Assembly (NCBI GenBank): GCA_964187785.1 | Contig: OZ076409.1 | Span: 52,392,001 to 52,456,000 of the forward strand | Origin: Amphiscolops sp. MND2022 | Taxonomy: Eukaryota | DNA: 64,000 nt | Reading direction: 5' to 3' | Shown: positions 10,172-63,706 of the stretch, in pieces | How the letters are laid out: the number at the start of each line of letters is the position of its first letter | Numbering within the stretch: position 1 is the stretch's first letter | Notes under the pieces: model-generated | Told to the model about the DNA's origin: nothing | Seen by the model: the letters and a program-made list of their open reading frames with translations, nothing else | Database searches by the model: none | Made by a program: the position numbers and the translations under genes

Positions 10172-10280
10172 GTTAGAATTCGAAACTGCAACTAAACCCA
10201 AAATCAGAGTAAATGAAGACCTGATAACATTTGTGGGAAGCACTTTAAAACTTGAACTAATAGCGATGAAGATTGAAGCA

Positions 10281-17100: not shown

Positions 17101-17129
17101 TTTCGCCACGACTCCAAGTTTCCAACCAG

Positions 17130-22199: not shown

Positions 22200-22427
22200 A
22201 AGACATGTAAATTAACGTCCCAAAGGTCCGTGGACCAAATGATGAATTTCAAACTGGGACTTTTCAGTATCTTTAGAAACATACACGTCGACAAAACGAC
22301 TTGATGGCGCACTATGCAAAGGCCAAAGACACTAATTAGAACAATTACTCAACACTAAAGATAAATAAATACAAAAAACAGAATTACAGAAGGCCAACAG
22401 TTTGAAACAGATGTACACTATGTACAT

Positions 22428-26429: not shown

Positions 26430-27631
26430 TCCTAAATAAAAGGAAATGAAGTCAAGCGGGAACCTTCCTGAATATGAATCCATTTACCGCATTTAAAAAT
26501 CTTCCGGAAGTTAATATTTCGAACATGCGTGGAAACACGTGTTATTGGACAGGAAGTACTGAAGTGTGAATAGAGCCCTGATCAAGCCCATCACAGTTCA
26601 AATCTAAAGAAAACTACTTATATGAAATCGGTGACGCGGAGACTCGATAGTAACAACAGGAGTCGGCCAGAGAGGGATTGTAAAAAGCTGCTGAAGGGGA
26701 GACAGGATGTCGATTTTCCGCAGTGATCCAGAAGAATCCACACGGATGAGGACGAGTGGACACTGAGTCCGGGGATGAAGCCGGAATATAATGAGATGAA
26801 AAATTAAATAGAAGTGACTTAAAGACTAACTATCGACTAAATTAGAAATGGATAAATACGATGATGGTTAAATACTGGATAATAGAAGAACAAAATGTGG
26901 AATTGAAAGTAAAGAATTGAAAAGATGAATAGGCGATGTGACAAGATGTCAAGATTGGAGTTCGTGGCTATACACTTTGGTGTCAAATTCATTGCTATTT
27001 ACAACTTATGGCATTATGTGGATAGAGTCTGCCAGCGATATCTACATTTTCCTTATTTATTTCGAAAACTTTGTTATTTCGCAAAATTATTTCATGATTT
27101 TATTTTATTTCATTCTACTTTATTTTGTTTTCAAGGTCATATTATTTTATTCCTTATAAGGATTTACAACCTTGGATCGCCATTTTATCAATGGAATCAT
27201 ATTTACGAAATCTGGTTGGCTACCACCAGGAAGGTGAGACAGCGTGGCCTCCGACCGAATTCTCACCCTCTTAAAACTTTCAAGTGGACTATGAGTGTTA
27301 ATAAACACTCATCTCGGTGCTTAAGAAGTGAAGGTGGTGATGAGGGCCATGAGTGTCAATAATGCCGCTGTTGGCAATTTCAAAGTGATTATAATAACTA
27401 GTTAAAAGAAAGTTACCCGGGAAATTTTGTTATTGAAAAATAACTCGAAAACGAAAAGGGAAAACCCGGGGAATAGCAAACCGAGAGGCAACAAGACTCA
27501 GCGGACTGATAAGAGAAACGATCGCCATTATTAATCTTTCAATCAATCAGATCAGTCGCTCTAGAAAAGCCACCTCGACTTGAAACTCTTACATTATCAA
27601 AATTGCCAAGAAAATATTAAAAACCAGATCC

Positions 27632-39951: not shown

Positions 39952-42900
39952 GGTGTTTCTATTTTGAAACAAGATCTATGCTTCTGGATGAGCTCGTTGT
40001 TCTTCGACACCAAGAAAAACAACGTAGCATACGCACAACAGTCGTTGGTTTTACCTTTCGATGGGAGAAAATTCCTTAAAGTCGAAGAAATAGAGAGTAG
40101 ATCTTCGAATCTGCACTTCACATCCGGTTCCAGTAGACGCAGACGGTCTTTCACTATATTATTCCAAAGCTGCACATAAACACCGCACCCAGTAGCTAAT
40201 TGGGTTTTTAGAGCGATGGGAAAGCCTGATTGACAAACGAACTGGTCGAATTCTCTGTTGAGGTCACCGTCTTGAACAACTTCAGCAAGGTTTCTGAAGA
40301 AATTGAGAAGTGTGGGAATTTCTTTGATGCAGTTGATAACTTCAAAATCATCGTCAAATAATGTTTGGAGTACAGATAGCTGGCTGTTTTGCTGTATCTC
40401 TGTTCGAAAATTATCGAGACAAATTTTAGGCAGAGGATTCCAAAAGTCAGCATCCGTTTTCAAACGCATCCCCGAAATGTCCCTCGGAAACGGAAGGTCG
40501 GCATAAGGGGTCTCCATTTCGGGAAACATTCGAGACAATGAATGATTGCGCTTCATTCTAGTTTGCAAGGCCTTTCCTCCTTGAAGAAAAATCAGTTGAG
40601 AGAATAGTCGTTTCACATTTTCGGCTACTTCGTGCTCTTGTTCGTGTATTTCTTTTTCGATGTCATGCGGGATAAAAAACTGTTTGGGTACTGCGATGGT
40701 ATATCGGGGCATTGTTTGAACAACAGACGCTGTGAAAGTGTCGAGACTTTTCTTGATTTGAGCAATTGAAAGCATATCGCTTATGAATGTTGCACATCCT
40801 TTAAGAATTAGGGCTGCGATAGCGTCATAGAAACCTCCAAACAGAGAAACTTCGAGGATCGTTTGAAAAAGAAGTAGTGTTTGTTTGATATCCACTGACG
40901 CAATTTCTTTTTCATTATCACTATTGATAACGTTCTCTAAACTTCTCACGAAAGCAGGAGGAACTTCTTTGACAAGCATGGTAGTCAAAGTATACCTAGT
41001 ATCTTTGTCCATGAAATATGGCTCACAACTTTCGGACTTTTTGATGATGCAATAGTCTGTCAAAAATTTGATAGACGTTTCATCTTGTTTGGGAATAACA
41101 TAGTCCTTCATCAACCCCAAGAAAACTTTTCTCACATTTTTGAGACTTTGGTTCCAAAGGTTTGAAAGGTGGTTGTCGAGAAATTTCAGAGTTGGAATTT
41201 TACAAGCTTTGAATTCATAGTCGTCTACGTCAGTCTGGCACAACAGACATCTAATCAATCCGCTTTGTTGGCTTTCTGAAGCCTGTATCTCTTCACGTTT
41301 CATCTTCCAGCATTCCGGGTGAACAGGATGACTGCCTCTACAGGGAAGAGAAAAAGGGAAACCCTGTTTTCTTGTTGTTTCCACCACATCTTGGCGACAA
41401 AATGCACACTCACAAGTTAAACAGCTTTTCATAAGACAGTAGGTCAGAACCGCTTCCGACGTTTTCCTCAGTGAAACTATCAACCTCTTAATGAACGTAA
41501 TAGAAGAAATTTCTTCTCTCTTCATTGAGCTCATCGAAGTCCACAACATTTTAGCTCCTTTGCCTGCTTCTGTCATCGATTCGTCTTCCATTAGATAACA
41601 AGCTTCTGTTACGCAATATGAAAAAATTTGTAATTTTTCTAGTTTCCCCTGAAAATCTTCGTCATTCTGAAAATTTTTGCTGCAACTCTTGAGCAAGTTC
41701 ACGTTTTCCACAAAAAAATCCAGTTCTTGTTTTTTGAACTCCAAAATTTTGATATCAACTTCCACTTTGAGTGGAGGGCTGATCTGATGCATCAGAGATT
41801 CGACAGTGTTCTTCACTATGAAAACAGTCAATGACTCAAACTTGTGTTTGCTGATTCTGGCACTGAACATTCTTATCAAAGGTTGGATAAACTTCAACTC
41901 TGACTTCATCTTGCCAAAAACAAGAAACGCCAATCCAAAGCTGGGATTTGATTCAGGCATTTCTCTCATTCTTTGATTTACAACTAATCGTATGAACTTG
42001 AGGAGATCTCTTTTTTCTTTTTCTGCCGTAACGTTCAGCTCATGAATTATTAGGTCATTTATAAAAGCATCGCGAATTTTCTTTTCATCGGGAATGGAAC
42101 TGTTCCTGAGAATTTTCCACAGATCGTGAGATTCATCATTTTGCAAAGTTTCGAGAAACATTTCTTGGATGTTCAAATCCGGCTGGTTTTGAACAGCATC
42201 TTTCGATTCTTTGAGTAAATCATCCATCTCGTGAATTATGTACGTGCTAAAAGGGAACTCAATAGCCAGCTGCATGGAATGGCCTTCAACTTGATATTTG
42301 GTTCCAATCGTGTCTATGAGCGAAAATAAGTTAATCCATAATTCTTTGCACCACTTTTGTTCGAAGAGCAGACGCAAATTGTTATCGAAGTTGATCGTGT
42401 TGAGAAACTTGCTCATGTTTGGTTTTGCTCTCTGTTTAAACTCGTTATAAATCACTTCCTTCAGCGATCCCATTGCAATCAGGTCCTGCAAACTTGCTGC
42501 CTTATCAAGAACCCAAGCTCCAAGTTCGGTGTCTTGGCCCAGTTCCATGTATAAAAAAGATGCCAGCTGCTTCATAAACATTTCTTCTACTCCCGCATAG
42601 ACCTCTGGGCCGTCAAATAACTGTAAGACGTTTGAAATTCTTACAACTTTGCTCGATGACGTTTCTGTGCTTGAACTTGCTATTGTTTCATAAATCACAT
42701 CTCGAATGAACCGCTTTTGAAAAGCCGAACAACTAGAGCATTCGACATGAAACAAGTCTTTCAAAGTAACCTTCTCTCCGTAGAGCAGTTTGAGGAGACT
42801 CTCGCTTCCTTCGTCTACCAACAGTGAATCTACGTGAAAACAGTCCCATTGGCCCATGCAGAAACTGCGGTAATTGGATATGTACCAATTTCTAGGAAGA

Positions 42901-45900
42901 TCAATTATCAGGACAACGCATAGTTTGCTTATTTTTGCACGGCCCATAATATTCTCGAGACAGTATTTAGCACATGCTATCAGAGACACGTGTTTTTGAC
43001 CTTTCAAACAAGTGACAAACAAGCATTTGGTTGCATTTATGTCCTTTTCATTGTCGCACTGAAGCAGGAACTCGTTGACTTTACTTGTAAACTCTTGCTC
43101 CGTCTTCATCCAATTAAGGTTGATCACAAATTGTCTATTCTCATTTTCAGTCTCACTGTCCAACTTCATGAGTTTTCTGTTTCTTAGCTTGATTTCATTG
43201 GCTGATGGGATTCCACAGAAAGTTGTGACTTCAATGAAGCGACATTTAGTCCCCTCTTCCCACGTGGAATAGCATTGTTTCAAGAGGAGATCCGACAAGT
43301 GTTTGCGTCCTTGTTTGTTGTACAGCTCCTTAAAATCAGGCGGAGAATTGAATAGTTTAGCTAATTCGGGAACTGGCGGTTTTTTTGAGATTCGCATAAC
43401 TGCTTCCTCAGTGCAAGTTTGAAAAGCTTTTTCAAAAGATTTCAACAAGAGAATTCCCGGATTGTCTTTTTCGTGGTGTTGTAAGCTATTGTGAGCTTGT
43501 AAGACAATGCATGCCGCTGTATCCGCTTCTACAAAGCCAATGAAAACATCTCTGGTTTTGAAGCGCTCCGTTGGTATATCGGTTCTTTCAAAGTCTGACA
43601 GAATGGCCATAAGCTGCTTCAGTTTCTGCACGACTTCCGCCTGTTGCGAAGTCAGGATTGATTGCATGTCGACATAGTGTTTTTCTAGTCGATTCAACAA
43701 AGGAATCGGATAATGCTTCGCAGTTTTTTCTTCCTCGATGATGATCAATCTGAAGTTTTCCGAAACACTGCATTTGACTCGATTGCTCCCTAAGCCCATA
43801 TCCACAAGACGCTTCTCGCCATAATAAACGTATTGCTGGTTTAAAGCATCATACAAGGACTCGTAAACAGAGCCAATGTTTAGTAGAACGACAGGAATTC
43901 CGCTCTCCATACACATTTTGATGCGATTGATGTTTCTACATACGTTGACGTATTCGCGATCCTGAGGAAATGAAGATCCGAATATGATTTCACAGTTTTC
44001 CACGTTCAAGACATTCGGTAGAAGCTGAAGAGCGGCAAAGTTTTCAGTGAGTAGAAGGAGGTAACGACTCTCGTTGTTCATTCTGCGCTGTTCCTCGGGC
44101 ATGGCTAGTCGTTTTCTAACTTCTTCAATGTTTTCGCGCACCAAATTAAGCGTACTCATTCTACCCAACACTTCTAACATCATACTTCGTTCGAACAGAT
44201 GATCACAGTGATCTATGAAGACTTTAGCAACTGATCTATCTTTCCCGCCAAAATTTCTGCAAATTGCTCTACAGACTTTCAAGAAACTCAATCCCTGGCA
44301 ATTTGACTGCAAGTACTGGCAGTAAAGCATTTTCAGAAGTCCATAGAAGTCTCGTAACCCAAAGTATTCTTTGCTTTGTTTAGCAAACTGCATCTTGTAG
44401 ATTTGCTCGTATGCCTTGGACAGGGGTTCTACAAGACTCTCAAGTCCGGAGCCTTCATTGTCCACTCTGCAAATAGCCCTGGCGCTTTCTAAGAGTTCAC
44501 CGTGTTTTGGAACAGTCCTACTGACAAGAATACCGCGGCTCATTTTAGCCGGATCCAAAGCCCAGTTAGATATGCCTATGAAGGCAACTTTAGAATACTC
44601 GGCAGGTATTAATCTTCCTTGTTCTACGTAACCTTCTTCCAAAAGTGGGTGTAAAGCTTTTAAAGGCATTTTAGCAGATGCTTCAGCTAACCCTATTTCA
44701 TCTAGCACAACAACACTCACGAAAGATTCCAAGTTTTTTTGTTTTTGATACTGGGATGCTTGTTTGAATTCGTTAACGATCCCTTCGGCGGTTGTGTGGG
44801 GCGAGCATTGAAACGATCGCACATGAGCTTGCTTGAAGTTTCGGAAGAACTTACTGTTTGAGTATTTTCCCTGCATAGCATCCATAACTATGGTTTTGGC
44901 CAGTGACTTGGAACTACCTGGTTTTCCAACGAGAAACAAAGGAATCTTCGTCTGAATGCAAATAAACATCATGAAAACGTTCTCCGACAATGCTTTATTT
45001 TTGGCGACTGTTGTTTTGAAACCCAGCTGGATATTGTTGACAAAAACTTGTTGGCATAGTTCCAGCTCTCGCTTTATTGACTCACCTTTTCGTGGTAAAG
45101 TATTGTCGCCTGTGAATCCAAGAGATATTTCTTCACAGTATTTGTCTCTTTCTTCACTCAGCGAAAAATAGTAACAAACGCCCAGTGTCAAAATAATCAA
45201 ACAAGACAATTGATTTGGTTCTGCGGGTACCACTCCACAATGTTTTTCTTTCTTTTTAAGATCATAAATTTCAGAGAGCACGACCTTCGCTTTTTGACGA
45301 AAAAATGTGAAAACTTTCATAGCTCTGTCGATATGGCGCAAACTAACCGATAAACTAAGTTCTTCGTTCTGACGGAGAAATATCTGGGATAAGTTGAGAA
45401 CGTGACTTATGAAGTCAACATCTGCTGAGCTCAGTCTGAGGAATCTGGCCTGTCTTTGTACAATTTGCCGAGTATACTTGTATTCGTTTTCTTCCGTCAG
45501 ACGCCCAAAATCCCAAGCAAGAGGCAACAAGCTTGGGGGCAAGGGGTTCACGCGGTAAACAAGGTGCCTCATGGGAACGTCATCTTCTAATTTATCATCG
45601 TTCATTTTGGGACTCAAATGGAATCCCAGTCCGGCAGTTTCCAATTTTTCAATCATCTTCGGATGATGTCGTTTGTAAGGATTGCAAGCTGCAACAATCT
45701 TCAAGCCGCAATCAGGATCTAAAACTTCGCCGCGTATTGTGAAATCGCATACAACTTCTTTGATGACGTGAATTGCTTCGGTTGTATTGGCTTCATCGAA
45801 GAACAAAACAGTGAAGGCACCTTTGTTCTTTTTGGAGTTTTCTTTAGCCTGTTTTTCAGCCTCCTTCACGTGTCGCACGATGTCTTCTGCTGTTACACCA

Positions 45901-46682
45901 CCATGCACTTTGACAACTTTTTTATTGGGGAAGTCTGGCCACGGCGCCAGAAGTTCACATAGATATTCAACCAATCTTGTTTTGCCACAACCTGTTTCAC
46001 CAATTATAATAACAGGTATGTTGCATTTGAATCTCATGTAGATCGCTAACAATTTCATGACATTGTCCTGTGTCAGCTCGTAGTTAGGGTCAACGTCTCT
46101 ATCAATAGACTGAACATCAGCTGATAAGACTCTATTGAGTTTTTTCAATTTGCAAGATTTACTCAGTTGATCGAAGTTTTCCCCTAGAATGTTTTCCCGC
46201 TGATCGTATGCTTGATTTCTGATCAGCACTTCAAGACTGGAAGGCATTGCATTTTCTGCAATTTTGTTGCCTTTGCTATCGATTAGGTTTGTATTTTCGA
46301 CTTTCACGCCCAAGAAAGTAAACGTAGTGTTGTCAGCATTGAAAAATACATAAGGGTGTGCATTGTTTTCCCATCTTCGGCGAATTTGGTGACACTTCAG
46401 CACAGAATGATCGTCAAGTCCAAACGAAGGCGAGTTGTCGGATACGGATAATGATGGCAACGCAAAATCTTGACCCATTTTCACAATGCAGTGTTTAACA
46501 AGAAAATTTTTGAAACCTACGAACTGTTCATCGTTGACAAAGATGTTACACTCGCAAAGTTCTAGCTGTTCATTCAAAAACTGTGTGAAATAGGTTAGTT
46601 GAGCCCACGTTGGGTTTTGTAAACCACTCCATTTAGTCAGAGTTTCAATAATCTCTTTGCACATTTCTCGTTGATTGTCGAC
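39952..46682 (-). CDS. RNF213: Giant 6.7-kb exon of RNF213/mysterin-like AAA+ ATPase / RING E3
   Basis: Walker A GETGCGKT and GKPGSSKS; Walker B FFDEAN and VLDEIGLAE; ACNPY, NWALDPAKMSR, GSSFP, LYDALNQ and PLLNRLEKH motifs; RING-like CAFC...C...H..H..C...CLLC. Confidence 0.95.
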
Positions 46683-47129
46683 CTTAGCCAGGGGTGATAT
46701 TTTTTTATTCATACATGACAGAATATCTAGTCAAAGCAGTCAGCAAAAACAGTGAAAGCGGCAAGAAAAATTAGCGGTTCAAAAAACTATGCTGACTAAA
46801 ATAACCCTTTCAATTAGTTTGATCTTTTTGAGTATTTGAGTACGATTACTTTAAAAAAGAACACCGAAAGAGCAAAAAAGCAAGAAGCCAATATATATTT
46901 GTAACCTCCACGCAAAATTTCTTTGGAAAATTGATCCTCTCTCATCGGCCAGCCCACAATAACGCTCGTTTCAAATTGATATTGAATTACAGCTGAGAAA
47001 ACCTACTCAAAACTTGTATCACGCACAATTTGGATTACAGTTCATTCCATATTCCATGTGGGGAAGGAAAATATTCAAATCAGACAGTTTTTTTTTTTAC
47101 AAAATTTGCCAAGCATCAAGATTATAATT

Positions 47130-48700
47130 AACCTTAAGGGTGTTACCCATAGAATTCAACTCACATAAAATTAGCTTCGTGCGATTTGTATCTTTGAAGA
47201 TTTCTGGATTTTTTTTAGTTGACCCCAAGTACCCCCGATTGACCCAAAAATGACCCCGAAAATGAGAAAATCAGCAAAAATTTCTATGTTTTAATGCAAT
47301 TTTTGTCAATTTTTCGATAAATATCGGTAATTAGAATGTTGAAAACGTTCAACAAGGCACGAACTTGTTGTCCAATAGTTTTCTATGAGAGATAAATGCG
47401 GTTTTCCAAAAAAAGACAACAAAATTGACAAAATTTTCAAAGGTGCCCGATTTTTAATTTGGTCAAAATGTTGACAAAACTTTTGTTGATTGGAATAATG
47501 AAAACGTTCATCAAGGAAAAACTTCATTGTCCAATAGGTTTTTATGAAGATATAATTGCTTTTTTTCCTAAGGAGAAAGTCTCAAATTAACACCGAATAT
47601 GACAAAAAGTCCATACTTTTCCAATTTTAGAGTTTTTTTGCAACTTCTGTCGAGTTTTCGACAGACATAGTGGATGGAATCGTGAAATGGGTCAACAAGA
47701 AAAAAGAGGTTGTTGTCCAGTAGTCTGTTATGGAGAGATAATTGCAGTTTTCTGAATTATCTCAAATTGACACCGAAAATGACAAAAACCCAAAGATTTC
47801 CTTACTTCAATTTTTTTTGCAAGTTTTGTCAAACTTTTGACAGACCTCATGGATAAGAATGTTGGAAAGGTTAACAAGGGAAAAATGTGTTGTCAAATAA
47901 GCTTAGTGAAGAGATAAATGTAGTTTTTAAATGAAAAATGTCTGGGGAATTGACATTGAAAACGTGTAAATTTCGAAATTTTCTGATTTTCAACACTTTT
48001 CAATTTTTGTCAAATTATTTACAGACTTATTGGACAATAATTTCAATCAACCCTCATTAAGCAAAGAAACCAAAAAAATGGTTTCAAAGCTTCAACAAAG
48101 ACTAATCCCGCTATCCATTAGGCGTTTTGGAAGATTTAACTGCATTTTGTTGATGGGATTGTCCTCAAAAACACTCCAAACTTCAAAGAACGGCAAAGAA
48201 GCACGTATTAGCGACAAATTAAGCCCATATCTCGTTCAAACCACGAAAATTTTTGTGTAATAGAATTTCCATTGACCTGAACGTTGGAACTAATCGGTAG
48301 GTAAAAAGTGGTATGAACAAAGGTGTCGAATATTCTAAATTACTTCACTTTTCCACAACAAAGTCCCAATCTTGGAACCTTTCCAAAAAATGACTTCAAT
48401 AGAAAAAACCTTAGGCTCACAATTGAAACGTGTAGCTACCGGTTTCGACAAGATGTCAGAATGTTTGTTTGCACAAGGAAGAAAACGTAAAAACGACACA
48501 AAAATCAAAACTTTGTTTACTTCTTCAAATTTTTTTGTAAATTTTCTAGCTAATTTGTGGACTAGAATGGTTAAAACATTCAACAACAACCGAACTCAGT
48601 GTCCAGTAGGCTTTTTTGGAAGAGATATCTAAAGTTTCATGCGAACAAAGTTTCTCAAATTGACCCCCAAATTGTCGAAAGTTTCAAAATTTTCCAATTT
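47130..48700 (+). repeat. Dispersed repeat with ~170-180-bp sub-units; inverted relative at ~39300-39760
   Basis: Recurrent GTTGTCCAATAG...GAGATAA..GC...CTCAAATTGACA units. 47140 GTGTTACCCATAGAATTCAACT resembles the reverse complement of the sequence at ~39678-39700. Confidence 0.65.
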
Positions 48701-51700
48701 TGGACATTTCTGACGGGACTATATGCAAATAACAAGCTTGGACCAGCCTGATTTGGCCCCCAACTCAATTTTCTGAAAATTGCAAAGGACCTCAGTTTCA
48801 AACTTTTACAAATTTTTCAACAAAATATACCCCAAGAATTACGCCTGAGACTCGGAAGCGTCTTCTCAATTTCTCCCTAACAGGAATCACAAATAATCCA
48901 ATCAAGTTTGCTTCGGAAAATTTACTTGTTTGCGAGAAAAATTTTCAGCTTGCATAACTACTTTTCTCAAGCTGAAATCAGCTCTGAAAGCAAGGCGGTA
49001 CCCTGCGATCAAATGAAAGTTTTGGAACAATGCACAGAAGTGCAAAAAACTAAAAAGAGATATTTTCCTCAATGACAAAGAATGTTCATCAAATCCAGCG
49101 GCTCAAACGTTACAAAGAGATCACCCTCAAGTCGCGGGAAAATTATTTCTTTTTAGAGAAACCCTCAGAAACTAAAAATTGAAAAAAATGTCTTTCGAAG
49201 AATGTCTTGAAAAATATTTCTTTCGCCACAAAATGTTTTTGAAAAATGTCAAAAAAAGTGGCCAGCTATCGCATCATCATAAATTAGAGGTCTCCGTCGA
49301 AAATGTGCTAAAATGAATCAAAGCTTTCGTTTTCTGAACTTCTGTGAGTTTTCATAATGCATTGACTATTCTCGATTCATAAATTTATGTAGTTGTAGAA
49401 CAGTTTGGGCAGGATTAGATCTCGCTGCTCAGCGGGCGTCGTCTTGATATTGCTTCAGTTGATCCTGTTTGTTCCATAATATACCTGGCGATACTTCCGT
49501 GTTCGGAAATTTGGCCGTATGGCAAAAAAGTATTTCACAAAATTATTCGTGTAGAAAATCGAAAGTTTTGGTGATCTACTGTTTCTATCTTTTGACGAGT
49601 CCGACTTGTTGTCCAAAACGAAATCTGCGTTGAATCAAAGCTGAAACCAAAAAGTAACAAGAAGCGCAGAGTTTACCCAGCATCACTATTGCGTTTACCT
49701 AAAGTGGCATGGCACTATATAAGAGGTTATCTCTTTAAATAACCCTCTAACTTTAATGCCTACTTTGTTCAACGTACCTGCTAATACTGTTGACTAAAAT
49801 TCGTCATATTTACTCTAGAAACAAGATAGAATACCGTCGTCGTAACACATTCAACTTGAAATTGTTATTGAGTGACATTGATCATGGTGCAGTCAAAATG
49901 ACATCGATTAGCAGAAAAAACTTTTATAACAGACCTGACAGGCAGAAAATTTTCGAGTTACGAGTGAGGAAGAAAAGGAAAAAAAGAGAGCTAAAAGACA
50001 CAAACTTACAATTTCAAATTTAAAAAAAGACCATTCAAGATGCGAAAACTACTTCAGGGAAGGTTCATCCAATACTTCAAGATGACGCACAACAAAGGAC
50101 CTAATCACAATGACAACTGATTAAGAAATTATACCCGAATTCAGAAAAGATCAGGAAGCGAGAGAAGGACATGCTCATCTGGGCGTAAGGAGAAGCCGCT
50201 CTAACGGAGATGACGAAGACAATGAGGGAGAGCGATCCGAACCAGATGAAACTAAACCAATTATTCTTGTTTGTCCGACTTCATTTCACACCTGGAAGAA
50301 ACCAACTTTCCAGAAAAGCTGACTTTTTTGAAATGGTGTGAGAATCCAAAAAAAGCTGAAAATGTGTAAATCAGATTGTTTCAAGTGGAGCAGATTATCG
50401 AATGCGACAACGTTACACCACCAGAGCTAAAAGTTTCAATATTCCAATCATTATTCGAAAGATCCACCAGAGATTACGGGCTGAGCAAGAAGAAATCTGA
50501 TGACTGAAACGAAAACAGATAATTGATGAAGGACCGGCTAAAAGATACCAATAATTCAATTGACAGGAGAAATGTAGAGCACGTCCAGGAAAGACCTCAG
50601 AGAAAAAATTGTCTAAAAAATTCGGTTGACAGAAGCAAAAGACGACGGGAATAACAAAGAGTAGATTACAAAGATAATTGGTGCGGACAATGTGGGGGAC
50701 AGAACTGGACCTGAAAGCATAACTGCACAGCAAGAAGTGTCGAATGCAGAAATTCTGAAAAGAAAGAAAGGGCATCATGAAAAGATGTGCAGACTCCCCA
50801 AGATGAAGCAACACGTAGATAAGAGGTTGTTGTCCAGTAGTCTGTTATGGAGAGATAATTGCAGTTTTCTGAATTATCTCAAATTGACACCGAAAATGAC
50901 AAAAACCCAAAGATTTCCTTACTTCAATTTTTTTTGCAAGTTTTGTCAAACTTTTGACAGACCTCATGGATAAGAATGTTGGAAAGGTTAACAAGGGAAA
51001 AATGTGTTGTCAAATAAGCTTAGTGAAGAGATAAATGTAGTTTTTTAAATGAAAAATGTCTGGGGAATTGACATTGAAAAAGTGTAAATTTCGAAATTTT
51101 CTGATTTTCAACACTTTTCAATTTTTGTCAAACTATTTACAGACTTATTGGACAATAATTTCAATCAACCCTCATTAAGCAAAGAAACCAAAAAAATGGT
51201 TTCAAAGCTTCAACAAAGACTAATCCCGGTATCCATTAGGCGTTCTGGAAGATTTAACTGCATTTTGTTGATGGGATTGTCCTCAAAAACACTCCAAACT
51301 TCAAAGAACGGCAAAGAAGCACGTATTAGCGACAAATTAAGCCCATATCTCGTTCAAACCACGAAAATTTTTGTGTAATAGAATTTCCATTGACCTGAAC
51401 GTTGGAACTAATCGGTAGGTAAAAAGTGGTATGAACAAAGGTGTCGAATATTCTAAATTACTTCACTTTTCCACAACAAAGTCCCAATTTTGGAACCTTT
51501 CCAAAAAATGACTTCAATAGAAAAAACCTTAGGCTCACAATTGAAACGTGTAGCTACCGGTTTCGACAAGATGTCAGAATGTTTGTTTGCACAAGGAAGA
51601 AAACGTAAAAACGACACAAAAATCAAAACTTTGTTTACTTCTTCAAATTTTTTTGTAAATTTTCTAGCTAATTTGTGGACTAGAATGGTTAAAACATTCA

Positions 51701-53942
51701 ACAACAACCGAACTCAGTGTCCAGTAGGCTTTTTTGGAAGAGATATCTAAAGTTTCATGCGAACAAAGTTTCTCAAATTGACCCCCAAATTGTCGAAAGT
51801 TTCAAAATTTTCCAATTTTGGACATTTCTGACGGGACTATATGCAAATAACAAGCTTGGACCAGCCTGATTTGGCCCCCAACTCAACTTTCTGAAAATTG
51901 CAAAGGACCTCAGTTTCAAACTTTTACAAATTTTTCAACAAAATATACCCCAAGAATTACGCCTGAGACTCGGAAGCGTCTTCTCAATTTCTCCCTAACA
52001 GGAATCACAAATAATCCAATCAAGTTTGCTTCGGAAAATTTACTTGTTTGCGAGAAAAATTTTCAGCTTGCATAACTACTTTTCTCAAGCTGAAATCAGC
52101 TCTGAAAGCAAGGCGGTACCCTGCGATCAAATGAAAGTTTTGGAACAATGCACAGAAGTGCAAAAAACTAAAAAGAGATATTTTTCTCAATGACAAAGAA
52201 TGTTCATCAAATCCAGCGGCTCAAACGTTACAAAGAGATCACCCTCAAGTCGCGGGAAAATTATTTCTTTTTAGAGAAACCCTCAGAAACTAAAAATTGA
52301 AAAAAATGTCTTTCGAAGAATGTCTTGAAAAATATTTCTTTCGCCAAAAAATGTTTTTGAAAAATGTCAAAAAAAGTGGCCAGCTATCGCATCATCATAA
52401 ATTAGAGGTCTCCGTCGAAAATGTGCTAAAATGAATCAAAGCTTTCGTTTTCTGAACTTCTGTGAGTTTTCATAATGCATTGACTATTCTCGATTCATAA
52501 ATTTATGTAGTTGTAGAACAGTTTGGGCAGGATTAGATCTCGCTGCTCAGCGGGCGTCGTCTTGATATTGCTTCAGTTGATCCTGTTTGTTCCATAATAT
52601 ACCTGGAGATACTTCCGTGTTCGGAAATTTGGCCGTATGGCAAAAAAGTATTTCACAAAATTATTCGTGTAGAAAATCGAAAGTTTTGGTGATCTACTGT
52701 TTCTATCTTTTGACGTGTCCGACTTGTTGTCCAAAACGAAATCTGCGTTGAATCAAAGCAGAAACCAAAAAGTAACAAGAAGCGCAGAGTTTACCCAGCA
52801 TCACTATTGCGTTTACCTAAAGTGGCATGGCACTATATAAGAGGTTATCTCTTTAAATAACCCTCTAACTTTAATGCCTACTTTGTTCAACGTACCTGCT
52901 AATACTGTTGACTAAAATTCGTCATATTTACTCTAGAAACAAGATAGAATACCGTCGTCGTAACACATTCAACTTGAAATTGTTATTGAGTGACATTGAT
53001 CATGGTGCAGTCAAAATGACATCGATTAGCAGAAAAAACTTTTATGACAGACCTGACAGGCAGAAAATTTTCGAGTTACGAGTGAGGAAGAAAAGGAAAA
53101 AAAGAGAGCTAAAAGACACAAACTTACAATTTCAAATTGAAAAAAAAGACCATTCAAGATGCGAAAACTATTTCAGGGAAGGTTCATCCAATACTTCAAG
53201 TTGACGCACAACAAAGGACCTAATCACAATGACAACTGATTAAGAAATTATACCCGAATTCAGAAAAGATCAGGAAGCGAGAGAAGGACATGCTCATCTG
53301 GGCGTAAGGAGAAGCCGCTCTAACGGAGATGACGAAGACAATGAGGGAGAGCGATCCGAACCAGATGAAACTAAACCAATTATTCTTGTTTGTCCGACTT
53401 CATTTCACACCTGGAAGAAACCAACTTTCCAGAAAAGCTGACTTTTTTGAAATGGTGTGAGAATCCAAAAAAAGCTGAAAATGTGTAAATCAGATTGTTT
53501 CAAGTGGAGCAGATTATCGAATGCGACAACGTTACACCACCAGAGCTAAAAGTTTCAATATTCCAATCATTATTCAAAAGATCCACCAGAGATTACGGGC
53601 TGAGCAAGAAGAAATCTGATGACTGAAACGAAAACAGATAATTGATGAAGGACCGGCTAAAAGATACCAATAATTCAATTGACAGGAGAAATGTAGAGCA
53701 CGTCCAGGAAAGACCTCAGAGAAAAAATTGTCTAAAAAATTCGGTTGACAGAAGCAAAAGACGACGGGAATAACAAAGAGTAGATTACAAAGATAATTGG
53801 TGCGGACAATGTGGGGGACAGAACTGGACCTGAAAGCATAACTGCACAGCAAGAAGTGTCGAATGCAGAAATTCTGAAAAGAAAGAAAGGGCATCATGAA
53901 AAGATGTGCAGACTCCCCAAGATGAAGCAACACGTAGATAAA
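47704..53942 (+). repeat. Tandem duplication, 2 x ~3118 bp, near-identical
   Basis: Matching ORFs are offset by 3118 (48030/51148, 48372/51490, 49790/52908). Junction at ~50821. Confidence 0.95.
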
Positions 53943-55480
53943 GCAACATCATCAGTCAACGAAGCAAACATAACACCGTTGAAGCGACTAGATTGGATGA
54001 AACGGCTTGGAATAGCATAGTGGTAAACTCTACAACCCACAACAGCAAAATACACAATATTTGAATTTACGCGGAGGAAATGACTATTCCTAAACTGAAA
54101 AGCGAATTCAAAAACCTGTTTCAACTCAAATAATCAACCCAAAAGAAGACACAAAAAGCATACAACAAAAAACGCCCAATACTTTATCATTTACCAGATA
54201 AATGAGCAGTACAATTAAAAAGACGGGTACCAATAGAGGGCAACTAAAATAACAGAACGTTGATTTGTAAGCCCCACAGTAAAAGTAGTTAAGAAAGTCA
54301 AATCGATACAGACCGTGCCGGACTTAAGTAAACTAAACGGAGCAACAATCAAAAGAATGGCCTAGTCGGCGCCCCGCTCGAGGCACAAATTTGTACCCGG
54401 GGACGGATGTTAGTATCTTTTGTTGGATAAAGATTTGTTTGGAAGTTTTTAGTTCCTTTTTGACTGGACATGTTCCAAAGATAAGCGTTATGAGGAAGCG
54501 AGTCACAGCATGTAATAAAAAAGTCTGTGTCATCAATCTTTACTAAAACAATGATTCGTTAATTCGACTGGTAAAAAGCGTCGCAGAAATATTGCCATTT
54601 AATTGCGAAGAAAACGTCAAGTAATCTTGTCATAAACTTAGTTTATTGACAAATCTGAGTACATTTTTGAAAGCAATTGAAAAACGAAACCGAGAAAGCA
54701 ACAATGAAAAATCCAACAAGGAAAACAAGATAACAAAGTACAAAAGAAACTCGAAAACGAAAAGAATGGACAAACAATTGGTGGCCGTTGTACCTCTTGA
54801 CTAGGAGAGTGAAGACAATTTCAACAAGATGAAATTGTTAAAAAGCCTGGTTTGACATGGAAAGAATAAGACGGCATCGTCCAAAGTCGGCACCCGGCTC
54901 AAGAGATCGACGCTCGCTGGCAACGCTTGCTAGCCAATAATCCCCGTAAACACAAGAGAAGAGAGATACAGTCTCAAATTTTTCTAGACTAGAGCTCTTT
55001 GCGTCTCTTTTGTGAGCGTACCACCTTCGAGAACCAAACATTTTCAAATCTCGAAACCTTTGCTTGGATTGATTCAACCATCACTTTAGTTTAGAGTCAC
55101 CTACAGCAAAATGCGGTAGCAGAAGTAAGTCGCCTTAAAAATCTACAAAATCACCAACTTCGTTGGCCGCTACAACAGACAGGAAAGTCAACCGGTGTAA
55201 GGAGATCTATCTAAAGAACGCATCTCTCCATTCCGAATTTAACAACCGTGATGTTAAATCTATGACTAGATTTCCTCTGGTTTCAAATTAAATCGGATGC
55301 GAGGATGGTTGTTTTAAATTGTTTTCAGCTAGTTTGCTTTTCTTTTGTAGTTCTAGGATTGCTCAAGTTGAAAACCTCTTTGTCTTTTAGGAAAGAATTT
55401 AAATTTAAGCTGAGAAAGTACAAGTTAGCAACTTCCATTATTTTATCGTTTTGCACAACTGGAATTGAACATAGCTGGTG
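49550..55480 (+). pseudogene. Heavily decayed LTR-retrotransposon relic, amplified by the tandem duplications
   Basis: TATATAA box; ...CA|TGGTGCAGTC LTR-end/PBS-like junction (~49884, copy ~53002); LDWMKRLGI protease-end-like motif. Confidence 0.5.
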
Positions 55481-58400
55481 AGGTTTGTTTGACCTCATTC
55501 TTGTTTGTCCGACTTCATTTCACACCTGGAAGAAACCAACTTTCCAGAAAAGCTGACTTTTTTGAAATGGTGTGAGAATCCAAAAAAAGCTGAAAATGTG
55601 TAAATCAGATTGTTTCAAGTGGAGCAGATTATCGAATGCGACAACGTTACACCACCAGAGCTAAAAGTTTCAATATTCCAATCATTATTCGAAAGATCCA
55701 CCAGAGATTACGGGCTGAGCAAGAAGAAATCTGATGACTGAAACGAAAACAGATAATTGATGAAGGACCGGCTAAAAGATTCCAATAATTCAATTGACAG
55801 GAGAAATGTAGAGCACGTCCAGGAAAACCTCAGAGAAAAAATTGTCTAAAAAATTCGGTTGACAGAAGCAAAAGACGACGGGAATAACAAAGAGTAGATT
55901 ACAAAGATAATTGGTGCGGACAATGTGGGGGACAGAACTGGACCAGAAAACATAACTGCACAACAAGAAGTGTCGAATGCAGAAATTCTGAAAAGAAAGA
56001 AAGGGCATCATGAAAAGATGTGCAGACTCCCCAAGATGAAGCAACACGTAGATAAAGCAACATCATCAGTCAACGAAGCAAACATAACACCGTTGAAGCG
56101 ACTAGATTGGATGAAACGGCTTGGAATAGCATAGTGGTAAACTCTACAACCCACAACAGCAAAATACACAATATTTGAATTTACGCGGAGGAAAAGACTA
56201 TTCCTAAACTGAAAAGCGAATTCAAAAACCTGTTTCAACCCAAAAAATCAACCCAAAAGAAGACACAAAAAGCATACAACAAAAAACGCCCAATACTTTA
56301 TCATTTACCAGATAAATGAGCAGTACAATTAAAAAGACGGGTACCAGTAGAGGGCAACTAAAATAACAGAAGGTTGATTTGTAAGCCCCACAGTAAAAGT
56401 AGTTAAGAAAGTCAAATCGATACAGACCGTGCCGGATTTAAGTAAACTAAACGAAGCAACAATCAAAAGAATGGCCTAGTCGGCGCCTCGCTCAAGGCAC
56501 AAATTTGTACCCGGGGACGGATGTTAGTATCACTTGTTGGATAAAGATTTGTTTGGAAGTTTTTAGTTCCTTTTTGACTGGACATGTTCCAAAGATAAGC
56601 GTTATGAGGAAGCGAGTCACAGCATGTAATAAAGAAGTCTGTGTCATCAATCTTTACTACAACAATGATTCGTTAATTCGACTGGTAAAAAGCGTCGCAG
56701 AAATATTGCCATTTAATTGCGAAGAAAACGTCAAGTAATCTTGTCATAAACTTAGTTTATTGACAAATCTGAGTACATTTTTGAAAGCAATTGAAAAACG
56801 AAACCGAGAAAGCAACAATGAAAAATCCAACAAGGAAAACAAGATAACAAAGTACAAAAGAAACTCGAAAACGAAAAGAATGGACAAACAATTGGTGGCC
56901 GTTGTACCTCTTGACTAGGAGAGTGAAGACAATTTCAACAAGATGAAATTGTTAAAAAGCCTGGTTTGACATGGAAAGAATAAGACGGTATCGTCCAAAG
57001 TCGGCACCCGGCTGAAGAGATCGACGCTCGCTTGCAACGCACGCTAGCCAATAATCCCCGTAAACACAAGAGAAGAGAGATACAGTCTCAAATTTTTCTA
57101 GACTAGAGCTCTTTGCGTCTCTTTTGTGAGCGTACCACCTTCGAGAACCAAACATTTTCAAATCTCGAAACCTTTGCTTGGATTGATTCAACCATCACTT
57201 TAGTTTAGAGTCACCTACAGCAAAATGCGGTAGCAGAAGTAAGTCGCCTTAAAAATCTACAAAATCACCAACTTCGTTGGCCGCTACAACAGACAGGAAA
57301 GTCAACCGGTGTAAGGAGATCTATCTAAAGAACGCATCTCTCCATTCCGAATTTAACAACCGTGACTAGATGTTAAATCTATGACTAGATTTCCTCTGGT
57401 TTCAAATTAAATCGGATGCGAGGATGGTTGTTTCAAATTGTTTTCAGCTAGTTTGCTTTTCTTTTGTAGTTCTAGGATTGCTCAAGTTGAAAACCTCTTT
57501 GTCTTTTAGGAAAGAATTTAAATTTAAGCTGAGAAAGTACAAGTTAGCAACTTCCATTATTTTATCATTTTGCACAACTGGAATTGAACATAGCTGGTGA
57601 GGTTTGTTTGACCTCATTCTTGTTTGTCCGACTTCATTTCACACCTGGAAGAAACCAACTTTCCAGAAAAGCTGACTTTTTTGAAATGGTGTGAGAATCC
57701 AAAAAAAGGTGAAAATGTGTAAATCAGATTGTTTCAAGTGGAGCAGATTATCGAATGCGACAACGTTACACCACCAGAGCTAAAAGTTTCAATATTCCAA
57801 TCATTATTCGAAAGATCCACCAGAGATTACGGGCTGAGCAAGAAGAAATCTGATGACTGAAACGAAAACAGATAATTGATGAAGGACCGGCTAAAAGATT
57901 CCAATAATTCAATTGACAGGAGAAATGTAGAGCACGTCCAGGAAAGACCTCAGAGAAAAAATTGTCTAAAAAATTCGGTTGACAGAAGCAAAAGACGACG
58001 GGAATAACAAAGAGTAGATTACAAAGATAATTGGTGCGGACAATGTGGGGGACAGAACTGGACCTGAAAGCATAACTGCACAACAAGAAGTGTCGAATGC
58101 AGAAATTCTGAAAAGAAAGAAAGGGCATCATGAAAAGTTGTGCAGACTCCCCAAGATGAAGCAACACGTAGATAAAGCAACATCATCAGTCAACGAAGCA
58201 AACATAACACCGTTGAAGCGACTAGATTGGATGAAACGGCTTGGAATAGCATAGTGGTAAACTCTACAACCCACAACAGCAAAATACACAATATTTGAAT
58301 TTACGCGGAGGAAAAGACTATTCCTAAACTGAAAAGCGAATTCAAAAACCTGTTTCAACCCAAAAAATCAACCCAAAAGAAGACACAAAAAGCATACAAC

Positions 58401-59724
58401 AAAAAACGCCCAATACTTTATCATTTACCAGATAAATGAGTAGTACAATTAAAAAGACGGGTACCAGTAGAGGGCAACTAAAATAACAGAAGGTTGATTT
58501 GTAAGCCCCACAGTAAAAGTAGTTAAGAAAGTCAAATCGATACAGACCGTGCCGGATTTAAGTAAACTAAACGAAGCAACAATCAAAAGAATGGCCTAGT
58601 CGGCGCCCCGCTCAAGGCACAAATTTGTACCCGGGGACGGATGTTAGTATCACTTGTTGGATAAAGATTTGTTTGGAAGTTTTTAGTTCCTTTTTGACTG
58701 GACATGTTCCAAAGATAAGCGTTATGAGGAAGCGAGTCACAGCATGTAATAAAGAAGTCTGTGTCATCAATCTTTACTACAACAATGATTCGTTAATTCG
58801 ACTGGTAAAAAGCGCCGCAGAAATATTGCCATTTAATTGCGAAGAAAACGTCAAGTAATCTTGTCATAAACTTAGTTTATTGACAAATCTGAGTACATTT
58901 TTGAAAGCAATTGAAAAACGAAACCGAGAAAGCAACAATGAAAAATTCAACAAGGAAAACAAGATAACAAAGTACAAAAGAAACTCGAAAACGAAAAGAA
59001 TGGACAAACAATTGGTGGCCGTTGTACCTCTTGACTAGGAGAGTGAAGACAATTTCAACAAGATGAAATTGTTAAAAAGCCTGGTTTGACATGGAAAGAA
59101 TAAGGCGGTATCGTCCAAAGTCGGCACCCGGCTGAAGAGATCGACGCTCGCTTGCAACGCACGCTAGCCAATAATCCCCGTAAACACAAGAGAAGAGAGA
59201 TACAGTCTCAAATTTTTCTAGACTAGAGCTCTTTGCGTCTCTTTTGTGAGCGTACCACCTTCGAGAACCAAACATTTTCAAATCTCGAAACCTTTGCTTG
59301 GATTGATTCAACCATCACTTTGGTTTAGAGTCACCTACAGCAAAATGCGGTAGCAGAAGTAAGTCGCCTTAAAAGTCTACAAAATCACCAACTTCGTTGG
59401 CCGCTACAACAGACAGGAAAGTCAACCGGTGTAAGGAGATCTATCTAAAGAACGCATCTCTCCATTCCGAATTTAACAACCGTGACTAGATGTTAAATCT
59501 ATGACTAGAGTTCCTCTGGTTTCAAATTAAATCGGATGCGAGGATGGTTGTTTTAAATTGTTTTCAGCTAGTTTGCTTTTCTTTTGTAGTTCTAGGATTG
59601 CTCAAGTTGAAAACCTCTTTGTCTTTTAGGAAAGAATTTAAATTTAAGCTGAGAAAGTACAAGTTAGCAACTTCCATTATTTTATCATTTTGCACAACTG
59701 GAATTGAACATAGCTGGTGAGGTT
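53382..59724 (+). repeat. Tandem triplication, 3 x ~2115-2120 bp
   Basis: ORFs 53811/55925/58045 and 54838/56952/59072 repeat. Junctions at ~55497 and ~57616. Confidence 0.95.
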
Positions 59725-60026
59725 CCGAAGCAAAGTTGAAATTTGAAGGATGAAGTTGAGACAAAAGCCATAACTGCTTTCTTCTTCGGAGTTAGTTTGT
59801 TGAATGATGAAGAATAATTTTTCTTTCGCTTTTCGAAAGGTTCAACAAGTTTTTTTCATGAATATTGCCAAGAGTTAAATAATTGAGCAGCTTCGAGAGT
59901 AAAATCATAACATGAAATTTAGAATTAATTGTAATTAACAAGGGATGTTTCGAGCAGGTTAAAACAGGGGTTAGATGATTGAACGAGATATAGCACTTTT
60001 GTTTTAAGAGTACAGATATAGTTCAT

Positions 60027-60485
60027 TTTATAAACACCCCTACTAAAGCATAGCAATTTACAACCTTTTGCACATTGAGATATACGCCAGAAAACTATTG
60101 CGGTCACTCTCTACACATTTGTTCGACTCTGTAATTTGTATAGTGACTCATAGCGTTTGTTTCTACAAGTTGGAAAGTAGAGACTCTGCATAATATCTCA
60201 AAAGGCAATTATACCAAAATGCCTATCATATGCATTAAGTTAGCCTATACAAGATTTGGCATTTTGCTATTATTGCCTTTTGAGATATAATACAGAGTCT
60301 GTACTTTCCAACTTGTAGAAACAAACGCTATGAGTCACTATACAAATTACAGAGTCGAACAAATGTGTAGAGAGTGACCGCAATAGTTTTCTGACGTATA
60401 TCTCAATGTGTAAAAGACTGTAAATTGTTATGCTTTAGTAGGGGTGTTTATAAACACCCCTACTAAAGCATAACATTTTACAGTC
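60027..60485. repeat. Long foldback hairpin (~195-bp arms) plus an extra partial arm
   Basis: 60027-~60222 is inverted at ~60258-60454. The terminus TTTATAAACACCCCTACTAAAGCA recurs at 60447, forming a second palindrome. Confidence 0.88.
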
Positions 60486-61652
60486 GTTTGTTGTCTGATT
60501 GAGATTATAGCACAAATTATAACTTCAAGTGTTGGTAAAAGAAAGGTGTTGATGAAAGTAATCTATACATTGATATTAAACAAATTAGCAGTTTTACTTT
60601 GTAAGTATGAACGGTTTCTCAATTGCGTAGCTCCGGCCTCTCATCGGACACCCTACAAGAGTAGGGCTGAGCTACTTGCCTGATAGGTAACCTTGCTGCA
60701 CTTATTTTCCTTCTATATGAGTAAGGGTCTCTTCTCCTTGGGCTGTCTCTAGTTCCATTGGTTGGACTACACTTGCTAACTTTCCCGAAATCGAGTTCAG
60801 TAAACATTTCGTTTTACTGAAACATATTTTTGATTCTTTACAAACGCTCATTTGTCTCGTTTGTTTAGCGGAAGCTGGGATAGAGGGTCGGGAAGTGTTC
60901 ATGCCGTGGAGTCAAAACACTCCCGTTGACTTCCATTTTTGACTTTGTTCGCTTTTCTTCAATTATACGTTACTGTAAAGTCACCTTTTACCAAATTAAT
61001 TTTTTCCAGCAAAGTCGCGCAGTTGCAAAAAACCCCAAAAGTAAAAGGAGAACCCTGTAACAATTTTGAAAGTAAAGCCCTAAATAAAAACATGAAAAAG
61101 TTTGAACGAGAGTTTAATGGTAAAGTTTCGAAAAAAACCTCCTTGTTCCAAAAAGATAACAAGAAGGGGGAGCCTTTGGTCTCAAATGTTTTTGAGAAAA
61201 CGGTAAACTATATTAAAAATTCAAAAGAAGTACTTTTTAGCCTCTATGAGTTCCTAAAATACTTTTTAAAACTGAGGCGTGAAGTCTTTAAAAGGTGGAC
61301 CATTCAGTTTGAGGTCTGTGATCTCACAAAAAACTTGCCTCTGTTTGCAAAAAGGGCCATCTTTTCGCTGTAACTTTCTTATTTCTGTAACTTTGTATTT
61401 CTATAAAAAACGTATGTGTAAAAAGTCCATTTTACAAGTTCTTTATTCACAACAAGTAGTCTAGTGTTCTGCTGGATGGATTAGGATTAATAGGAATCAA
61501 TGTTAAAACAAAGAAATCAAAGGAGTCAAAAAGTTAGTGAAAGAACAACGTGGCATCAATCTATAGAAATTCAGAACGTTAACGTTCGCTTGTTCCGTTT
61601 GGATTGCTGGAATGCGTTCTTCACTTTCCACACAAACATTATTTGAAAATAG

Positions 61653-62075
61653 AAAAGCCGGGACCTAGAAAATGGCTCCATATCAAATGCTCAAAATTAA
61701 CAAAAGGACTTCAAAATAACAAAGTATTGGTGAATTGGGGACCCTTTTACAAAAAAATTGAAAAAAAGTCTCCTAATGCCGAAAAAACTGAGAGGGATTT
61801 TTCAACATCCATTCTGTCGATGAAAATTGAAGGGGGACCCTTTGGGGGAAAAATGTTCCCGAAAAAAGTTTCGCAATGCCGAAAAAGACAGAGAAAGGTA
61901 CCCTTTGGCCCCGTCCGGTATTGTATGTTACGCGGGAAACATTTTTGGTTTAGTTCATTGGGCCAACGGGTACAATTTGGCGTCTTCTATTTTGGTCACT
62001 TCAGGTTTATCGAAAAAAACTGACGAAAAGCCGTGACTATAGTCGACTTTTTTCTCTAAAAAGCGCCGACTAAAA
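61653..62075 (-). mobile_element. HINE family A copy, reverse orientation
   Basis: GCGCCGACTAAAA at 62063-62075. The reverse complement of the 3' ...GAGCATTTGATATGG...TCCCGGCTTTT end lies at 61653-61697. Confidence 0.65.
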
Positions 62076-62824
62076 GCGCATAGCCTGATTTTCCCGCAAT
62101 TTATCCCATTTAAGAAGCTGTAGATTGCATCTGAAGAAAATAAATACAATGAAAGTGACCGAATCTGCAAATACGAACATCCGCTTTAGCTAGGCCCTAA
62201 GACCCCGCAGCCCAGCAAGAAACAAGAAAAAACAAGAAAAGGGCAAAATTCAAATCATTTTTTCGTTATTTTCTTTTTTAAGCTATACATTTGTTTTTCC
62301 GGAACAAGCATGTACATTTAGTAGTATTGGATTTCAAAAAATGGGCCTATTGGCATTATCTGGGCCCTAAATCCCAACTTCTGCTCGCTTTCAGACAAAA
62401 ACCGGAAAAATGTTGTTTTTGACCTTAAAAAAAGGAATACATCACTTTATATCACACGTTATATTTGAAAACGCTGTTTCTATGAGTTCGATATGAAAAC
62501 AAAATTATTGTACCTTCGCAAGATTCAAACTCAAATCCTCCTCCTGCTTCACAGTGTTACGCTCTAATCACTCTGCAATCGGGCTTGAAATTTGAAGCAG
62601 TTTAGTATAACTTGTAGAAATACTTTTGGAATGAAACCACTAGTGACCGTTTGAGAAAAAACTTCCCAATAAAAGAGTCTATCGTTTTTCTAGCAAGCGA
62701 CGACTTAAGAAGGATGTTTGGGTTTTGAAAAATGTTTTTTTTTTAGAATCACTCGTCTTTCATCAAGTTTTTCGGATCTGAAAGAAAAACGGTTGGCCAC
62801 AAAATTTGAAATATCGCCCCTGAC

Positions 62825-63706
62825 TTGAGTTTCAGCTGAGTTGAATTGATGGGAAGTAATATCCTCATCTTTTTCAAGTAAAGTTAAGTATTGATATGGT
62901 CTTTGGAAGGAAGCTTTCGCAATAAAAGTTTCACAGACGAATATCGAAAAACGAGCACTTTCAGTGTCGTTCTCACTCTTGTTCTGGATATACTGTTTCG
63001 GTGAAAGGCAATGGCAGTTTGGCAGACACAGCAAAAATGTACTTTTTGCGAAACGGCCCTATAACAGCCAAATTTCCTTTTGCGAACATGTGTGATGCAT
63101 TTTTTCATCATCAATAAAAGCTACAATAAATGTATTGTTGAAGACTATAGTCGACAAGAATGACTTTTAACAGTTTTTGTGACATTGGAGAAAAGCTCTT
63201 TTTAGAAAAGAAGTGAGTTTTCAAATCATCTCAGTTTTAATCACTATCTTTTTTTGCAAAGAATGAACTTTTTCCCAAATACTTCAGTCTGTGACTATAG
63301 ATCTGAAAACGAGGCTCTACTTACTTGCTTAGCGGGGTCGAGCATCTCTACGCAGACTAAAAAATTTTTCCTGGTCACAAAAAGCTGCCCCCTGTTGTCT
63401 TGAATTCCGCCCAAAATGCACAAACTGAAAATGAACTCCTCCACATTCTCTTTTACCTAAAAACCATATACTTTATACAAGAAAAAATTTTTAAAGAAAA
63501 ATTTTTATATTAATTTTTGTTTCTTACATTGTTGGACACATCAATATGAATGATTGTGGGTTTTGTTTGAAGGCGAAGCTTCCACAGGACATCCAGGCAC
63601 TTTTTCTGGTCAATCTTCGTCTCGCAAAGTCTCATTATGATTCGTTTGAAGGTTTTGTCTTCTTGCTGTAGTTTGGATTCCAACTCCGAAACGAATAGAG
63701 ATTTTC
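62825..63706 (-). CDS. RNF213: Upstream exons of RNF213-like gene (63706-63528, 63456-63325, 63058-62825)
   Basis: In-phase GT-AG exons encoding GKSLFV...IIHIDV, FIFSLCILGGIQDNRG and LPNCHCLSP...FQRPYQYL. These are the RNF213-like motifs that precede the NPTW motif of the giant exon. Confidence 0.85.

Follow-up and report, generated by a model that had tools for sequence, protein, structure and literature searches.

In 1994, Giroux et al. reportedly described a maize Dissociation (Ds) intron; Ds is a hAT element. Transposon insertion at AGGT has been put forward as a model of intron gain (in the part of PMC3443670 considered here), and introners that co-opt both splice sites, such as the Florenciella elements, are described in the sections of PMC9860276 that were covered. 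Two hAT introner families, fam14 of Panicum virgatum (switchgrass, 12 copies) and fam1 of Styela clava (6 copies, Charlie-type hAT), take both splice sites from an 8-bp duplication according to rows 11 and 17 of supplementary file 8 of PMC12130899; the 'hAT' entries of that source covered here are places 1-32 of 63, and files 13 and 14 lie outside this coverage and could bear on novelty. Here, we analysed a window of 64,000 nucleotides (the whole stretch of DNA under study) from contig OZ076409.1 of Amphiscolops sp. MND2022, in which one copy of the gene RNF213 contains a 16-kb interruption. From the sequence of its ends, we consider it fairly probable that this interruption was founded long ago by a hAT-type transposon and is spliced as a GT-AG intron.

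The RNF213 gene is read on the minus strand, and the interruption separates two of its exons:

62825-63058, minus strand: upstream RNF213 exon of 78 codons, ending in ...FNSAETQ, with an acceptor position common to paralogs
39952-46682, minus strand: large downstream RNF213 exon of 2,243 codons, with AAA domains and stop-free

The AAA domains were identified by Pfam, and the named homologs of the large exon are RNF213 proteins. A tree computed without P0124 places the large exon together with 17 unnamed proteins at 100/100; among these is one that clusters with an RNF213 of Convolutriloba macropyga, so that the host is likely an acoel. The 1.07-Gb genome yielded 9 RNF213 matches among 13 candidates, namely the window gene and 8 paralogs. 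An earlier note on this DNA had named the absence of the intron from RNF213 paralogs as a check, and it was found that 8/8 paralogs are continuous at the intron site. The same is true of P0013, the nearest uninterrupted relative, which is sister (100/99) to the clade formed by the window gene and the protein P0002 described below. The frames of 3 of the 8 paralogs are short; therefore, gene decay does occur in this family. It was also observed that the large exon of the window copy (39952-46682) and that of P0002 are shorter than those of the 2,534-2,661-aa paralogs, and that both are without the precomputed PF20173 match that these paralogs carry.

On the gene strand, the upstream exon ends in ACT CAA, with the donor CAA|GT at 62825/62824. 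At the other border the far arm is followed by GCTAAG, the acceptor AAG|GTC lies at 46683/46682, and the next exon begins with GTC GAC from 46682. The borders are made up as follows:

62823-62830, minus strand: left 8-bp flank ACTCAAGT, a putative target duplication, the final two bases of which are the GT donor
62809-62822, minus strand: left terminal inverted repeat CAGGGGCGATATTT, which provides donor positions +3 to +6 (GT-CAGG)
46689-46702, minus strand: right terminal inverted repeat, AAATATCACCCCTG on the gene strand, the source of a short pyrimidine stretch
46681-46688, minus strand: right 8-bp flank GCTAAGGT, a putative target duplication, bases 5-6 of which are the AG acceptor

The earlier note had claimed 14-bp terminal inverted repeats that begin with CAGGGG and match at 13/14 positions, and reading of the arms at 62822-62809 and 46702-46689 confirmed this, the right arm having a single mismatch to the complement of the left. 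The positions likewise agree with its claim that the 8-bp flanks hold the GT donor and the AG acceptor; the flanks are identical at 5/8 bases, and the arm offsets sum to 8. The intron measures 16,142 bp (16,134 bp from arm to arm plus 8), and joining GT to AG does take out the element plus 8 bp and keep the frame, as had been proposed, with the predicted join ...FNSAETQ|VDNQRE... placed between the YQYL and NPTW motifs. The interruption thus has the canonical GT-AG borders and restored reading frame of a spliceosomal intron. The earlier description of an acceptor without a polypyrimidine tract was too strong, because a short stretch is present: 9/12 bases at positions -15 to -4 are pyrimidines, mostly from the CCCCT of the arm, with no U-rich tract. 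Over the ends as a whole, 4 mismatches in 22 pairs correspond to about 10-15% change per copy, and the 5/8 match of the flanks is compatible with such decay (P 0.15-0.32). The ancestral 8-bp site ACTCAGGT is a putative sequence proposed by the earlier note only.

This arrangement suggests how the intron may have arisen. A hAT-type element would have inserted at an 8-bp site containing AG|GT, duplicating the site. The left copy would supply the GT, with the first bases of the element completing the donor GT-CAGG, and the last bases of the element would supply the short pyrimidine stretch, followed by the AG from the right copy. With the element and one 8-bp copy spliced out, the protein would stay the same, and the insertion would therefore have been tolerated. 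Nested repeats and tandem duplications would have arrived afterwards, inflating a smaller founder to 16 kb and leaving only its ends, which may have persisted partly through doubling as splice signals.

Inverted arms by themselves are not rare in the window, 14 of 100 shuffles giving 2 matches at 2 mismatches. In a background of other DNA from the same genome, 653 kb with both strands counted, the frequency of GT..AG pairs with 13/14 arms at any 8-bp split was 1.2e-5, and it dropped to 1.6e-7 when the arm started with YAG and had at least 6 G/C. What is rare is the placement of the pattern at splice borders. The pairing of the two ends is ordinary, and paired ends were rejected as a special structure because 44 of 500 random intron windows pair equally well.

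Matches to hAT transposases are abundant in the genome, with 150 scored out of 2,215 candidates. In 9 local hAT loci, 7 arm pairs begin with TAG or CAG and are flanked by 8-bp duplications that are exact or nearly so. A young 360-bp element with a perfect 8-bp duplication has an arm beginning CAGGGGTG, its first 8 bases being the same as those of the window arm. The window arms (14 bp, matching at 13/14, with a YAG start) are short YAG inverted ends of the kind that hAT elements have.

As to splicing, the ten exons of the window gene that were read, a count that excludes exons further upstream and the last exon, contain 0 stops. Two nested repeats within the interruption have diverged by 11% and 15% from the majority at their best-matching loci (10 and 16, respectively). 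On the assumption that the nested repeats inserted in place, a gene copy dead since the age given by the 11% value would be expected to have about 37 stops in the large exon, compared to the 0 observed. Because the ten exons are stop-free despite repeats that are 11-15% diverged, the interruption is probably a spliced intron. The donor agrees with the U1 consensus at 6/9 positions, within the range of 5-8 for the nine other donors of the gene, 5 of which also carry a pyrimidine at +3. In our judgement of the sequence, it appears to be the best of 7 GT/GC candidates; the alternative in-frame donors at 62800, 62797 and 62752 match the consensus more poorly than that at 62825. Upstream of the start of a conserved E-I-I-E-T-L stretch there is no phase-0 AG other than the acceptor, and the 44 bases preceding the acceptor hold no other AG. 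Another, ordinary intron of the same gene spans about 15 kb, and so the 16-kb size is unremarkable. We also observed that 3 of the 9 other donors are GTTAGT, and that 3 of 20 copies of the U1 small nuclear RNA that were read (L265, L271 and L272) start with ATACTAACCTG, which is predicted to pair with GTTAGT donors.

The age of the intron was approached through P0002, a protein from another genome that is 62% identical to the window protein and represents a sister gene (100/100); a search for P0002 in the genome of the window did not find it. This sister gene keeps a 2,244-codon frame. A second protein, P0121, matches the upstream exon of the window gene at 51% and stops before the NPTW motif. 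P0121 and P0002 are each encoded on a contig of 124,574 bp, and P0121 is the upstream exon of the sister gene; therefore, the loop that holds the window intron is interrupted in the sister gene as well. The short N-terminus of P0002 alone was rejected as proof of a shared intron, because a gene caller may take the first Met.

The position of the sister intron was weighed by judgement and not computed. We lean, by little more than even chances, towards a position eight codons downstream of the window site. The sequence VKGVEVQI would then be exonic and resembles VKKVP of P0013, the VS that follows fits GT(A/T/G)AGT (the form of 5/9 other donors of the window gene), and the sister loop would have 42 residues compared to 43 in the window gene. 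A sister intron at the same site is possible but doubtful, and would fit the start of the sister read-through at VKG where that of the window gene begins with VRG; a slid intron seems unlikely. Between two paralogs of comparable protein identity, synonymous changes amount to about 1.4 per site, and the probability of 13/14 arms surviving neutrally at 0.4 per copy is 0.001. If the site were shared, the arms must therefore have been kept by selection. If the sister intron lies downstream, the window intron would be lineage-specific, and the decay of its ends agrees with the divergence of the nested repeats. A metagenome scan for DNA around the sister gene gave 2 weak unrelated matches (38% over 40 aa), querying proteins with the upstream exon in a word-based search gave no match, and no full-length ortholog model was found among proteins of 3,928-5,000 aa, longer ones not having been searched.

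Several results weigh against a hAT-type founder. In the interruption, 0 of 68 frames (at least 50 aa) passed a Pfam cut-off, and 38 long frames taken from hAT loci as tblastn queries matched only a reverse-transcriptase fragment, with no hAT match; non-autonomous hAT copies lack transposase. A second element with the ends of the interruption, the lack of which the earlier note had counted as refuting its reading, was not found, in searches that can miss sequence and so leave the absence of a family unproven. Both ends of the interruption were single-copy in genome searches. Genome-wide, the 14-mer arm was no commoner than the control (8 versus 7 matches), and the 12-mer arm gave 75 matches versus 108 for the control, with the window's own as the only inward pair within 20 kb. 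Allowing one mismatch gave an excess (498 versus 312), and none of the 20 sites examined, which came from the first 100 of the 498, ends a related element, most being internal to two other repeats. A pattern of AGGT plus a hAT end gave 4 matches versus 11 in the control; a partner end was present for 2 of the 4, which belong to one duplicated locus and are non-coding. Beyond these searches, the 5/8 duplication and an acceptor that ends in AAG rather than YAG count against the proposal, as does the predicted spliced loop of 43 residues compared to 36-39 in 176 of 178 homologs, though that of P0013 has 46. A sister intron at the same site would predate the split at about 1.4 changes, over which the arms would not be expected to survive neutrally. 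The gene model, furthermore, is not fully closed, because no clear in-register splice sites were found for a second interruption of about 0.9 kb that lies upstream between VVEVLER and QYKTEL, without inverted ends and with a normal-looking 3′ end. This upstream interruption is also copy-specific and lies outside the window, at about 52459720-52460610 of contig C1.

Therefore, because the tests for a transposase and for other copies were both negative, we do not file the interruption in a hAT or an introner family; as judged from its ends, it works like a hAT-made intron without membership in either. The hAT origin in the earlier note is sustained in that YAG ends and 8-bp duplications occur in hAT elements of this genome, and lacks a transposase and a second copy, and the introner-like family was not recovered by the genome-wide search for these ends. 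As a separate observation, a 220-237-bp inverted element (L122-L130) with arms CAGTGGTGATATT and TA flanks sits within a young repeat, and its arms resemble the window arms at 12-13 of 14 bases.

The best-surviving alternative, which we nevertheless regard as improbable, is a spliced intron gained in another way, by break repair or AG|GT duplication, with the 14-bp inverted repeat as a coincidence from a very large scan. Such an intron may be very old and would need no family, no transposase and no better duplication than 5/8, and in a scan of many introns some such cases are to be expected at a rate of 1.2e-5 per GT..AG pair. However, the rate is 1.6e-7 for a GC-rich YAG start, the 8-bp offset, the GT after the acceptor and the copy-specific position must all coincide as well, and the ends match those of local hAT elements. 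Less probable still is a founder from another superfamily that makes 8-bp target duplications, as P, Merlin and MULE do, or the use of nearby splice sites that add residues. No transposase fixes the superfamily, the small inverted element with the similar CAGTGGTGATATT arms has TA and not 8-bp flanks, and in-frame donors exist at the three positions given above, whereas a YAG start with an 8-bp duplication is the local hAT pattern and those donors fit the consensus less well. It is very unlikely that the insertion stays unspliced and has inactivated this copy of the gene. The acceptor is weak, the 0.9-kb interruption lies upstream, and broken paralogs exist, but the ten exons have 0 stops, whereas the large exon alone would be expected to hold about 37 if it had decayed for as long as the nested repeats, and the sister gene, also interrupted in the loop, keeps its frame.

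The proposed founding by a hAT-type element concerns only the ends, because the interior is a patchwork of unrelated nested repeats and two local tandem duplications, not one element:

62415-62618, minus strand: nested repeat, 69-84% to three other loci, which we take to resemble the head of a tRNA-derived short interspersed element
61674-62075, minus strand: nested repeat B, of high copy number and 11% away from the majority among its 10 best matches
60027-60490, no strand: nested hairpin element, like a miniature inverted-repeat transposable element, with 197-nt arms that are 95% complementary
53382-59724, no strand: decayed long terminal repeat (LTR) retrotransposon remnant with a reverse-transcriptase fragment, in three tandem copies of about 2.12 kb that are 98-99% alike
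47704-53941, no strand: 3.12-kb unit in two tandem copies, with 16 substitutions and 2 indels
47047-49450, minus strand: nested repeat A, of high copy number and, over 47047-47750, 15% away from the majority among its 16 best matches

The 3.12-kb tandem pair overlaps repeat A and the LTR-remnant array. The earlier idea of a 16.1-kb hAT insertion does not hold for this interior, which has no transposase. A single 16-kb composite hAT element that arrived recently with its cargo, for which the 98-99% alike tandem copies give some young parts and which would cancel the argument from intact exons, is highly improbable, given that both ends are single-copy, the cargo combination is nowhere else among the scored candidates, and the flanks already differ at 3/8 bases.

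A paralogous RNF213 exon on contig C12, outside the window, carries a copy-specific insertion of 1,443 bp (C12:6150675-6152117, minus strand). Its arms differ at 10/56 bases, and its flanks are CAGGAA and CAGGAT, a 6-bp duplication. The arms begin with AGTAGT, like a family with 38 matches versus 0 for the control, four paired copies of which (15-31 kb) have perfect 6-bp duplications. One copy carries genes for an A32 ATPase and a double jelly-roll protein, together with a fragment of a type B polymerase, a set that marks it as a Polinton. Removal of CAG|GAAAGT...ACTCAG|GAT gives FEQ|DTPEM, colinear with FEQEAPEM of the empty-site paralog on contig C13 (33.48 Mb), and exact removal therefore requires a GA donor (a GA-AG splice). 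A GT donor 63 nt inside the insertion also keeps the frame, adding 21 residues, and the GA and the internal GT are both candidate donors. Among 20 U1 loci read, of 23 found, none was a variant that pairs with GA donors. GA-AG introns are reported from a copepod and a tunicate in the part of PMC7072748 considered. A literature search for Polinton-made introns turned up Polintons that carry introners, the subject of PMC12166617 as far as that source was covered, and a Triparma family of 5 copies is labelled Polinton, with final class unknown, in the covered part of the PMC12130899 supplement. The C12 paralog appears to show the same design with another element and supports a transposon-made intron in the window gene. 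We suggest, tentatively, that DNA elements of more than one class may repeatedly become RNF213 introns in this acoel lineage by one design, with the target duplication giving both splice dinucleotides, the element ends completing the signals, and selection keeping the ends after the interior is replaced. If true, old introns would be traceable to transposons by their ends alone and one such intron would be a Polinton (virus-like) element spliced at GA-AG; the Polinton-ended paralog would be a more surprising result than the window intron.

Elsewhere in the window, positions 17043-26483 hold a 1,718-codon pol frame of Gypsy type (reverse transcriptase, RNase H and integrase) and then minus-strand frames of 416 and 526 codons, and positions 8421-10283 (plus strand) hold a 620-codon frame with no Pfam match over the cut-off.

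The mechanism is already published and not new, and the window intron would be a further case of it. The names of three acoel genera had no match in the 12 supplementary files of PMC12130899 searched, and literature on acoel intron gain and Convolutriloba introns gave nothing of this kind by title or abstract opening. The inverted CAG...CTG ends a few bases inside the borders are shared with euglenid nonconventional introns, which, in the part of PMC11282704 considered, have non-canonical borders and depend on end pairing, whereas the window intron is GT-AG with unexceptional pairing. With the AGGT model, within what was covered of PMC3443670, it shares an AG|GT duplication that yields donor and acceptor and a coding sequence unchanged by splicing; it differs from cases of that model and from maize Ds as an old insertion in an animal gene, for which splicing is deduced from intact exons and not transcripts. 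Its recruitment class is identical to that of the both-site introners in the covered sections of PMC9860276, but those families have median lengths of 30-654 nt and at least 5 copies, compared to a single intron of 16 kb. The Panicum and Styela families, as given in the covered entries, likewise have hAT-type ends, an 8-bp duplication and both splice sites recruited, and Styela is an animal; unlike these multi-copy families of shared sequence, the window intron is one old copy with no relatives found and its interior replaced. Introner surveys find young multi-copy families, whereas the window intron looks like a late stage, single and old, grown to 16 kb, with nothing but the 22 bp at either end to recognise it by. 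If confirmed, an acoel would join the animals with hAT-made introns, and the paralogs and sister gene could date the gain and test whether the ends were kept as splice signals.

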